From Dictyostelium discoideum (lineage: Eukaryota): 64,000 nucleotides of DNA. The DNA is taken from contig CM000153.2 in assembly GCA_000004695.1 (NCBI GenBank), positions 480,001 through 544,000 of the forward strand, written 5' to 3'. Below, one piece after another: positions 38,010 to 41,263 of the stretch. The translations under genes were made by a program, and so were the position numbers. Numbering within the stretch: position 1 is the first letter of the stretch; each line of letters begins with the position of its first letter. Below the pieces are notes generated by a model. It did not search any database. It was not told where the DNA came from and worked only from the letters and a program-made list of their open reading frames with translations.

Positions 38010-41263
<3,254 letters not shown>

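Follow-up and report, generated by a model that had tools for sequence, protein, structure and literature searches.

A window on chromosome 4 of Dictyostelium discoideum AX4 (the window is the whole stretch of 64,000 nucleotides that was analysed) carries a long minus-strand tgr-like gene whose reading frame is broken once, beside a run of four A. Is this gene a pseudogene, or has a sequencing error split an intact gene? A first-pass annotation recognized two pairs of such genes, each with a B-like and a C-like member, and placed a +1 insertion in the A4 run of the pair-2 B-like gene. Its reading of the frames holds. The frame ...SISNEFLTLFW terminates at the TAA at 40092-40090, the downstream frame goes on as GKEDSFTIYNDGVPSNFNNVKINDQETIMSFTIPKT... 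for 694 codons to 38010, and removal of one base from the run at 40095-40098 yields a single ORF of 1049 aa that is collinear with the B-like gene of pair 1 (52% identity over 1028 aa). The longest ORF in 1000 shuffles of the same sequence had a mean of 48 codons and a maximum of 124, compared with the 694 observed; the open downstream frame is far beyond chance.

Three ORFs of the window match AX4 proteins exactly (DDB_G0283303, DDB_G0283305, and an IF-2B-family protein), and its source is AX4 chromosome 4 (record of 5,450,249 bp); its G+C content is ~20%. Spliced models of three of the four tgr genes likewise reproduce AX4 proteins exactly: the B-like gene of pair 1 is XP_639150.1/Q54R97 (1122 aa), its C-like partner XP_639151.1/Q54R96 (855 aa), and the C-like gene of pair 2 XP_639162.1/Q54R85 (850 aa). 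In published tables, tgrH1 is DDB_G0283323, with 3366 exonic nt or 1122 codons (Polo et al. Table S3, 10.1101/2025.10.22.684067), and tgrI1 and tgrI2 are DDB_G0283335 and DDB_G0283317 (Polo et al. 2025 supplementary table, 10.1101/2025.10.22.684067). From the exonic length of 3366 nt and the DDB_G number range, the pair-1 B-like gene is most likely tgrH1. The pair-2 C-like protein has 79% identity to UniProt "Tiger protein I3". Because of these two matches, the B-like genes are, judged by their sequences, tgrH-type and the C-like genes tgrI-type. The broken copy has tgrH1 as its nearest named AX4 relative and a tgrI-type gene as its partner, which places it in the tgrH subfamily.

The labels "TgrB-like" and "C-like" were thus imprecise. 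Membership in the tgrB subfamily or the tgrBC locus is ruled out by the chromosome-4 location and the H/I-type named relatives: the tgrBC locus lies on chromosome 3, bounded by wacA, chdB, and DDB_G0280717, and tgrB belongs to the B/E/J clade. Holland et al. place tgrH and tgrI in an "AHIO" clade, apart from "BEJ" and "CDK" (PMC12745789). The terms "receptor half" and "orphan ligand", also used in the first-pass annotation, are borrowed from TgrB1/TgrC1; according to Holland et al. (2025 PNAS, PMC12745789), TgrA, H, I, and O have no known function.

Features of the Tiger family are present in the broken gene, including a hydrophobic exon-1 peptide (MKRLVFLITFYLVSIVYS) and, in the shifted frame, a TM-like segment (ATIIPVLGFLFFIGFVCFVLWFF), both recognized by eye, as well as a Pfam TIG match (E=7e-11, aa 271-342). 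The start codons of pair 2 face away from each other at 41263 (-) and 42108 (+), and the partners are ~28% identical. TgrB1/TgrC1 are likewise arranged head-to-head over a short shared intergenic region, both partners have Ig/TIG-repeat ectodomains, and in both systems a long cytoplasmic tail in one partner is matched by a short hydrophobic C-terminus in the other. However, TgrB1/TgrC1 is an allorecognition receptor-ligand pair, and pair 2 is a different locus of a different subfamily (chromosome 4, H/I-type). By analogy with tgrB1/tgrC1, the intergenic region of pair 2 is presumed to be a shared promoter.

Exons 1 and 2 of the broken gene encode a product of 368 aa without a transmembrane segment, and the out-of-frame remainder encodes the remaining Ig/TIG-like ectodomain, the TM segment, and an Asn-rich cytoplasmic tail with four DVACSS motifs (Table 1). 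The intron occupies the same position and phase as that of tgrH1 (89% A+T), and the ortholog gene model P0103 has the same exon/intron structure. The intact paralog tgrH1, 35 kb away, resembles the broken copy in its phase-1 intron after the signal peptide, its collinearity and 52% identity over 1028 aa, its TM segment and Asn-rich DVACSS tail, and its head-to-head tgrI-type partner. It differs in having an uninterrupted ORF of 1122 aa, whereas the pair-2 copy lacks 11 nt and ends at residue 368. The Asn-rich tails (38010-38700 and 2981-3700) contain a D(V/L)A(C/F/R)SS repeat spaced ~20-25 residues apart, which occurs four times in pair 2 and nine times in tgrH1. Between tgrH1 and its tgrI-type partner, positions 6980-7100 are occupied by a long (TAA)n/(AAT)n microsatellite; the intergenic region of pair 2 has no equivalent tract. 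The tgrI-type partner in pair 2 is intact in AX4, with Pfam Ig_TgrO1 and TIG domains.

Table 1. Window coordinates of the two tgrH/tgrI-type pairs and of the frame break in pair 2.
Feature	Position	Strand	Remarks
Pair-2 tgrH-type exon 1	41200..41263	-	ATG 41263; signal-peptide-like N-terminus MKRLVFLITFYLVSIVYSKTS; ends in phase 1
Pair-2 tgrH-type intron	41133..41199	-	67 nt, GTATGT...AAAG, 88% A+T
Pair-2 tgrH-type exon 2 to premature stop	40090..41132	-	Stop TAA 40092-40090
Pfam TIG domain, pair-2 tgrH-type gene	40386-40171	-	
11-nt deletion junction	40100..40101	-	1-nt positional ambiguity; from DNA alignments
A4 run (T4 in gene sense)	40095..40098	-	Length ancestral; lesion elsewhere
Out-of-frame remainder	38010..40094	-	694 stop-free codons, then TAA
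TM segment in shifted frame	38819-38751	-	Judged by eye
Pair-2 intergenic region	41264..42107	.	844 nt, 86% A+T, between divergent start codons; presumed shared promoter
Pair-2 tgrI-type partner	42108..44733	+	Exon 1 42108-42183, intron 42184-42256, exon 2 42257-44733; spliced model identical to P0013
Pair-1 B-like gene, most likely tgrH1	2981..6413	-	Exon 1 6413-6356, intron 6355-6292, exon 2 6291-2981
Pair-1 tgrI-type partner	7136..9776	+	Exon 1 7136-7211, intron 7212-7284, exon 2 7285-9776; reproduces P0047

Comparable loci were available from two wild D. discoideum genomes (L003, GCA_054859385.1; L006, GCA_054859355.1) and from the sister species "D. cf. discoideum" (L001 and L005). The orthologs were reached through the tgrI-type neighbour and a cluster member. 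Word-indexed homology searches with the repaired tgrH-type protein returned 4 and 7 matches and missed both tgrH1 and the 858-aa ortholog in L003, so absence from these match lists is uninformative; one reason for the missed relatives is that some protein clusters are represented by short fragments. A match to "SSHSISN" at window position 23538 is a chance match. The window, L003, and L006 have one gene order in common (IF-2B gene, three neighbours, tgrH-type gene, tgrI-type gene), and the L003 and L006 copies are therefore positional orthologs of the pair-2 tgrH-type gene. In L003, a single unbroken ORF starts in exon 2 of the ortholog, crosses the TM segment, and finishes with the same ...KLKLN*, and the gene was therefore functional in the recent past of the species. 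Two further loci, L002 and L004, are tandem tgrI-type arrays without a tgrH-type gene and are uninformative on the deletion site.

DNA alignments with six homologs (the syntenic orthologs in L003 and L006, a second L003 fragment, L001, L005, and the paralog tgrH1) locate the change. AX4 pair 2 lacks 11 nt, T(A/G)TATGGCCAA, directly 5' (in gene sense) of the T4 run. At this site, L001, both copies in L003, L005, and L006 read TTGACT(T/C)T(A/G)T(A/T)TGGCCAATGTTTTGGT..., which encodes L-T-L-(Y/F)-G-Q-C-F-G; the intact form is ...GACT[T/C]TATATGGCCAATGTTTTGGTAAAGAAG, and TTGACTTTATATGGCCAATGTTTTGG likewise contains the 11 nt. The paralog tgrH1 reads ATATATGGCCAATGTCTTGGT, of which the GGCCAATGT segment encodes YGQCLG. 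AX4 pair 2 reads TTGACTT followed directly by TGTTTTGGT; the sequence of the deletion junction is GAATTTTTGACTTTGTTTTGGTAAAGAAGAC, and the junction k-mer TTTTTGACTTTGTTTTGGTAAAG contrasts with the intact k-mer GGCCAATGTTTTGGTAAAGAAGAC. The disabling lesion is found only in AX4 pair 2 and is absent from its positional orthologs and from the paralogs, which is the pattern of a unitary (non-processed) pseudogene. The removal of one base appears to mend the gene because -11 ≡ +1 mod 3, and the repair is only arithmetical: the repaired protein is four residues shorter than every relative here (LTLF-GKEDSF versus LTLYGQCFGKE[D/E]SF). The deleted bases belong to a (Y/F)GQC(F/L)G motif that is kept by all tgrH-type copies examined and lies just past the Pfam TIG match; from the usual pattern of TIG domains, it probably marks where the next Ig/TIG-like repeat starts. 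In the tgrI-type paralogs, what looks by eye like the equivalent position reads IIG[G/S]CFG.

We thus consider it very probable that the 11-nt deletion made the AX4 pair-2 tgrH-type copy a recently formed, non-functional pseudogene beside an intact tgrI-type neighbour, in a cluster that evolves by birth and death. The AX4 lineage may have lost T(A/G)TATGGCCAA through replication slippage or microhomology-mediated repair, as suggested by the microhomology flanking the block, which is 1 nt (T), or 3 nt (TGT) with an L001-like ancestor. The loss acts as a +1 frame shift that ends translation two codons later. The predicted 368-aa product retains the signal peptide, the N-terminal region that is hypervariable, and the first of the TIG domains; missing from it are the transmembrane segment, the cytoplasmic tail, and all other Ig/TIG-like repeats. 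Such a truncated allele would be non-functional, and the tgrI-type neighbour persists in the birth-and-death cluster.

Several measures support the youth of the pseudogene. The out-of-frame part presents a stop-codon target of 93 site-equivalents, yet contains zero stops in 694 codons. This absence reaches P<0.05 beyond ~3.2% neutral divergence, and half the pairwise dS to L003 is ~6.6%. Pairwise dN/dS against L003 is 0.55 upstream of the break, 0.44 in the downstream ectodomain, and 1.37 in the cytoplasmic tail. The AX4-specific changes downstream of the break (S=25, N=36) correspond to an omega of ~0.37 (binomial P=2e-4 versus neutrality) and still bear the mark of purifying selection; most of this downstream divergence therefore accrued while the frame was intact. 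When downstream changes are polarised with L001 as the outgroup, AX4 has N10/S4 and L003 N7/S8; these small counts (Fisher p=0.26) only hint at relaxed constraint after the lesion. Both constraint results are compatible with a lesion so recent that no signal has built up.

The alleles also vary along the gene. The first ~700 nt of the tgrH-type gene (window 40530-41264) are hypervariable between alleles, with 73-85% identity compared with 91-99% further downstream. Upstream of the break, the allele nearest to AX4 is that of L006, at 91% versus 85% for L003; on the downstream side, L003 and L006 share 98% identity, and each is ~93% identical to AX4. The tgrH-type alleles are mosaic, with a genealogy that switches along the gene. 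The N-terminal hypervariability and mosaicism resemble the polymorphism and mosaicism reported for tgrB1 and tgrB2.

The pair-2 tgrH-type gene is intact in L003, broken elsewhere in L006, and reduced to a tail remnant in the sister-species locus L005. The L006 ortholog (L006:11400-12500, GCA_054859355.1) keeps the 11 nt and has two frame shifts downstream, a +1 change in non-homopolymer sequence near KFGDKS/MSTYNY and a T6 to T5 change inside the TM segment, and its gene model is split into two genes of 783 aa and 128 aa. It is either an independent pseudogene or partly the product of long-read error, which could account for the T6 to T5 change. The syntenic position in L005 (L005:9209-9619) holds only a 136-aa cytoplasmic-tail remnant beside a tgrI-type gene with an annotated length of 853 aa; another pair, made up of a 972-aa tgrH-type and an 854-aa tgrI-type gene, lies 6 kb further on. 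The copy in L001 (L001:7878-9950) lacks the N-terminus, is interrupted by two in-frame stops and two frame changes, and does not face a tgrI-type gene head-to-head; the deposited 618-aa model bypasses the lesions via artificial introns. The extra copy in L003 (L003:14297-15197) consists of a degenerate exon 1 and a mid-gene partial duplicate.

At every syntenic locus, the annotation gives the tgrI-type partner a near-complete length of 850-857 aa (853-857 aa in the other strains, whether or not a tgrH-type gene stands beside it), and its intactness was verified directly for AX4. Tandem tgrI-type arrays without partners also occur. In the L006 strain, such arrays have 248-nt tgrH-type remnants between the genes (L002:9122-9355; L004:6055-6288), which, like the partial L003 copy, suggests that parts of the partner gene were copied together with the cluster's duplication units. 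In AX4, DDB_G0283303 lies next to DDB_G0283305 (window 17204-20435), whereas their orthologs in the ACTFIW assembly bear the numbers 009148 and 009179; no fewer than six tgrI-type genes are numbered 009145-009177 in the same neighbourhood. The gap in the ortholog numbering and the tgrI-type genes found there imply that the chromosome-4 tgrH/tgrI cluster has been greatly expanded or rearranged in the ACTFIW strain.

The truncated allele might instead function as a secreted, TM-less N-terminal fragment of 368 aa, in parallel to tgrB2. It retains one TIG domain as well as the signal peptide and an N-terminal region that is hypervariable (73-85% identity between alleles), and tgrB2 (DDB_G0280693) sets a precedent as a truncated TgrB of likewise ~330-370 aa, with a signal peptide and an N-terminal variable region and without a TM segment, which is expressed and highly polymorphic. 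The truncation of tgrB2, however, is common to all alleles studied and carries signatures of balancing selection, whereas the one described here is seen in AX4 only, involves another subfamily on another chromosome, stems from a frame-disrupting deletion that cuts a conserved motif, and shows no visible selection for the short form among the alleles seen. Further, expression of the cluster is very low, with 1-9 reads for tgrH1, tgrI1, and tgrI2 in QS33 (Polo et al., 10.1101/2025.10.22.684067), and according to the literature most tgr genes are low or undetectable in AX4. A D. dimigraforme relative (P0061, KAN0045484.1, 372 aa) stops at about the same position, but it is an unverified gene model. 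P0061 aligns end to end with the 368-aa product at 29% identity and ends ~18 residues before the AX4 stop; it may be a TM-less Tgr protein or another truncated gene model. On balance, a functional fragment is unlikely, and the more specific idea, in which the deletion turned a membrane-anchored TgrH-type protein into a secreted fragment that modulates the intact TgrI-type protein next door in soluble form or acts as its decoy, is less likely again. If true, the latter would mean that the TM-less "tgrB2-like" architecture arose independently a second time, and would point to truncation as a recurrent route to new recognition functions in the tgr family.

The 11 nt could also have been lost in the AX4 reference alone, with the real gene intact, as the T/TGT repeats flanking the block could promote in vitro deletion during cloning or PCR. 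A collapse of this kind would be an unusual assembly error in unique, non-repetitive coding sequence, and the independent disabling lesions in L006, L005, and L001 show that the gene is commonly lost in nature; we regard such an artefact as quite improbable.

The other error to consider is the one raised in the first-pass annotation, a miscalled homopolymer, in which case AX4 would in truth have A3 at 40095-40098 and an intact gene. The long ORF does return when one base is removed, and with 90 A/T runs of at least 4 nt in the gene, the prior for such an error is reasonable in this genome. Yet five of the six homologs, all intact at the site, carry the T4 run in frame and at the same length (TGTTTTGG is identical in L001, both L003 copies, L005, and L006), and the run is interrupted only in tgrH1 (TGTCTTGG). 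The run is T4 in AX4 as in its relatives, and the difference is the adjacent 11-nt block, a complex sequence (TATATGGCCAA) that miscalling cannot produce. An A3 allele would still lack the four conserved residues (YGQC/GQCF) of every relative. The 368-aa product ending in LTLFW is present verbatim in UniParc as UPI00004E2D19, an old entry with the same stop; an earlier annotation therefore met the same truncated ORF. Because 11 nt of complex sequence were lost and the run has the same length as in the orthologs, a sequencing error at the homopolymer is very unlikely indeed. Of the two readings first proposed, a young pseudogene stands and a homopolymer error does not. Comparison with other strains, suggested at the same time, showed that, among the alleles compared, this break is specific to AX4 (the lesion is absent from L003 and L006) and gave no support to an extra A, as both have T4. 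The proposal that reads with A3 rather than A4 would indicate an intact ORF was aimed at the wrong change because the lesion is an 11-nt deletion beside the run.

It is scarcely conceivable that the break is bypassed in expression: several GT..AG pairs of length 1 mod 3 formally restore the frame (e.g., 40093..39937), but intron rescue is rejected as the candidates have 72-75% A+T, like coding sequence and not like genuine introns (88-89%), and would delete 13 to >100 conserved codons, and although TTT T GGT, as read from the sequence, would let tRNA-Phe re-pair in the +1 frame, programmed ribosomal frameshifting is rejected as the orthologs read through the site in a single frame, their in-frame T4 context does not suggest a programmed signal, and the 0-frame codon following TTT is TGG and not a stop.

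The pseudogene reading agrees with what is known of the family. AX4 has 38 genes of the tgr family along with 26 pseudogenes, the family evolves by birth and death, and some AX4 tgr pseudogenes have open frames in other strains (10.1101/2025.10.22.684067; PMC12745789). The pair-2 copy follows the same pattern, being disabled in AX4 and uninterrupted in another strain within a paired, clustered subfamily; the published work differs in centring on the chromosome-3 tgrBC locus, whereas this lesion lies in the chromosome-4 tgrH/tgrI cluster. The lesion is not described in the searchable text of the literature, and a search of the same kind on the names tgrH, tgrI, tgrJ, and tgrK found nothing specific. 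No NCBI or UniRef protein record was found for the 368-aa product, and tgrH1 is the sole tgrH gene in the expression table of Polo et al., which covers only genes with reads; for these two reasons, the pair-2 copy would probably be named along the lines of "tgrH pseudogene".

A frame break beside a homopolymer should therefore not be presumed to be a homopolymer error, as comparison with orthologs here showed an 11-nt deletion, and the identity of the genes is corrected from tgrB/tgrC to tgrH/tgrI on chromosome 4. For studies of TgrH/TgrI function, AX4 and probably AX2 would be natural loss-of-function backgrounds for the pair-2 copy. The lesion is an ordinary birth-and-death event of a kind already documented for tgr genes, and it adds one documented case outside the tgrBC locus to the published picture in which tgr genes are repeatedly and independently disabled in different strains and their partners persist.
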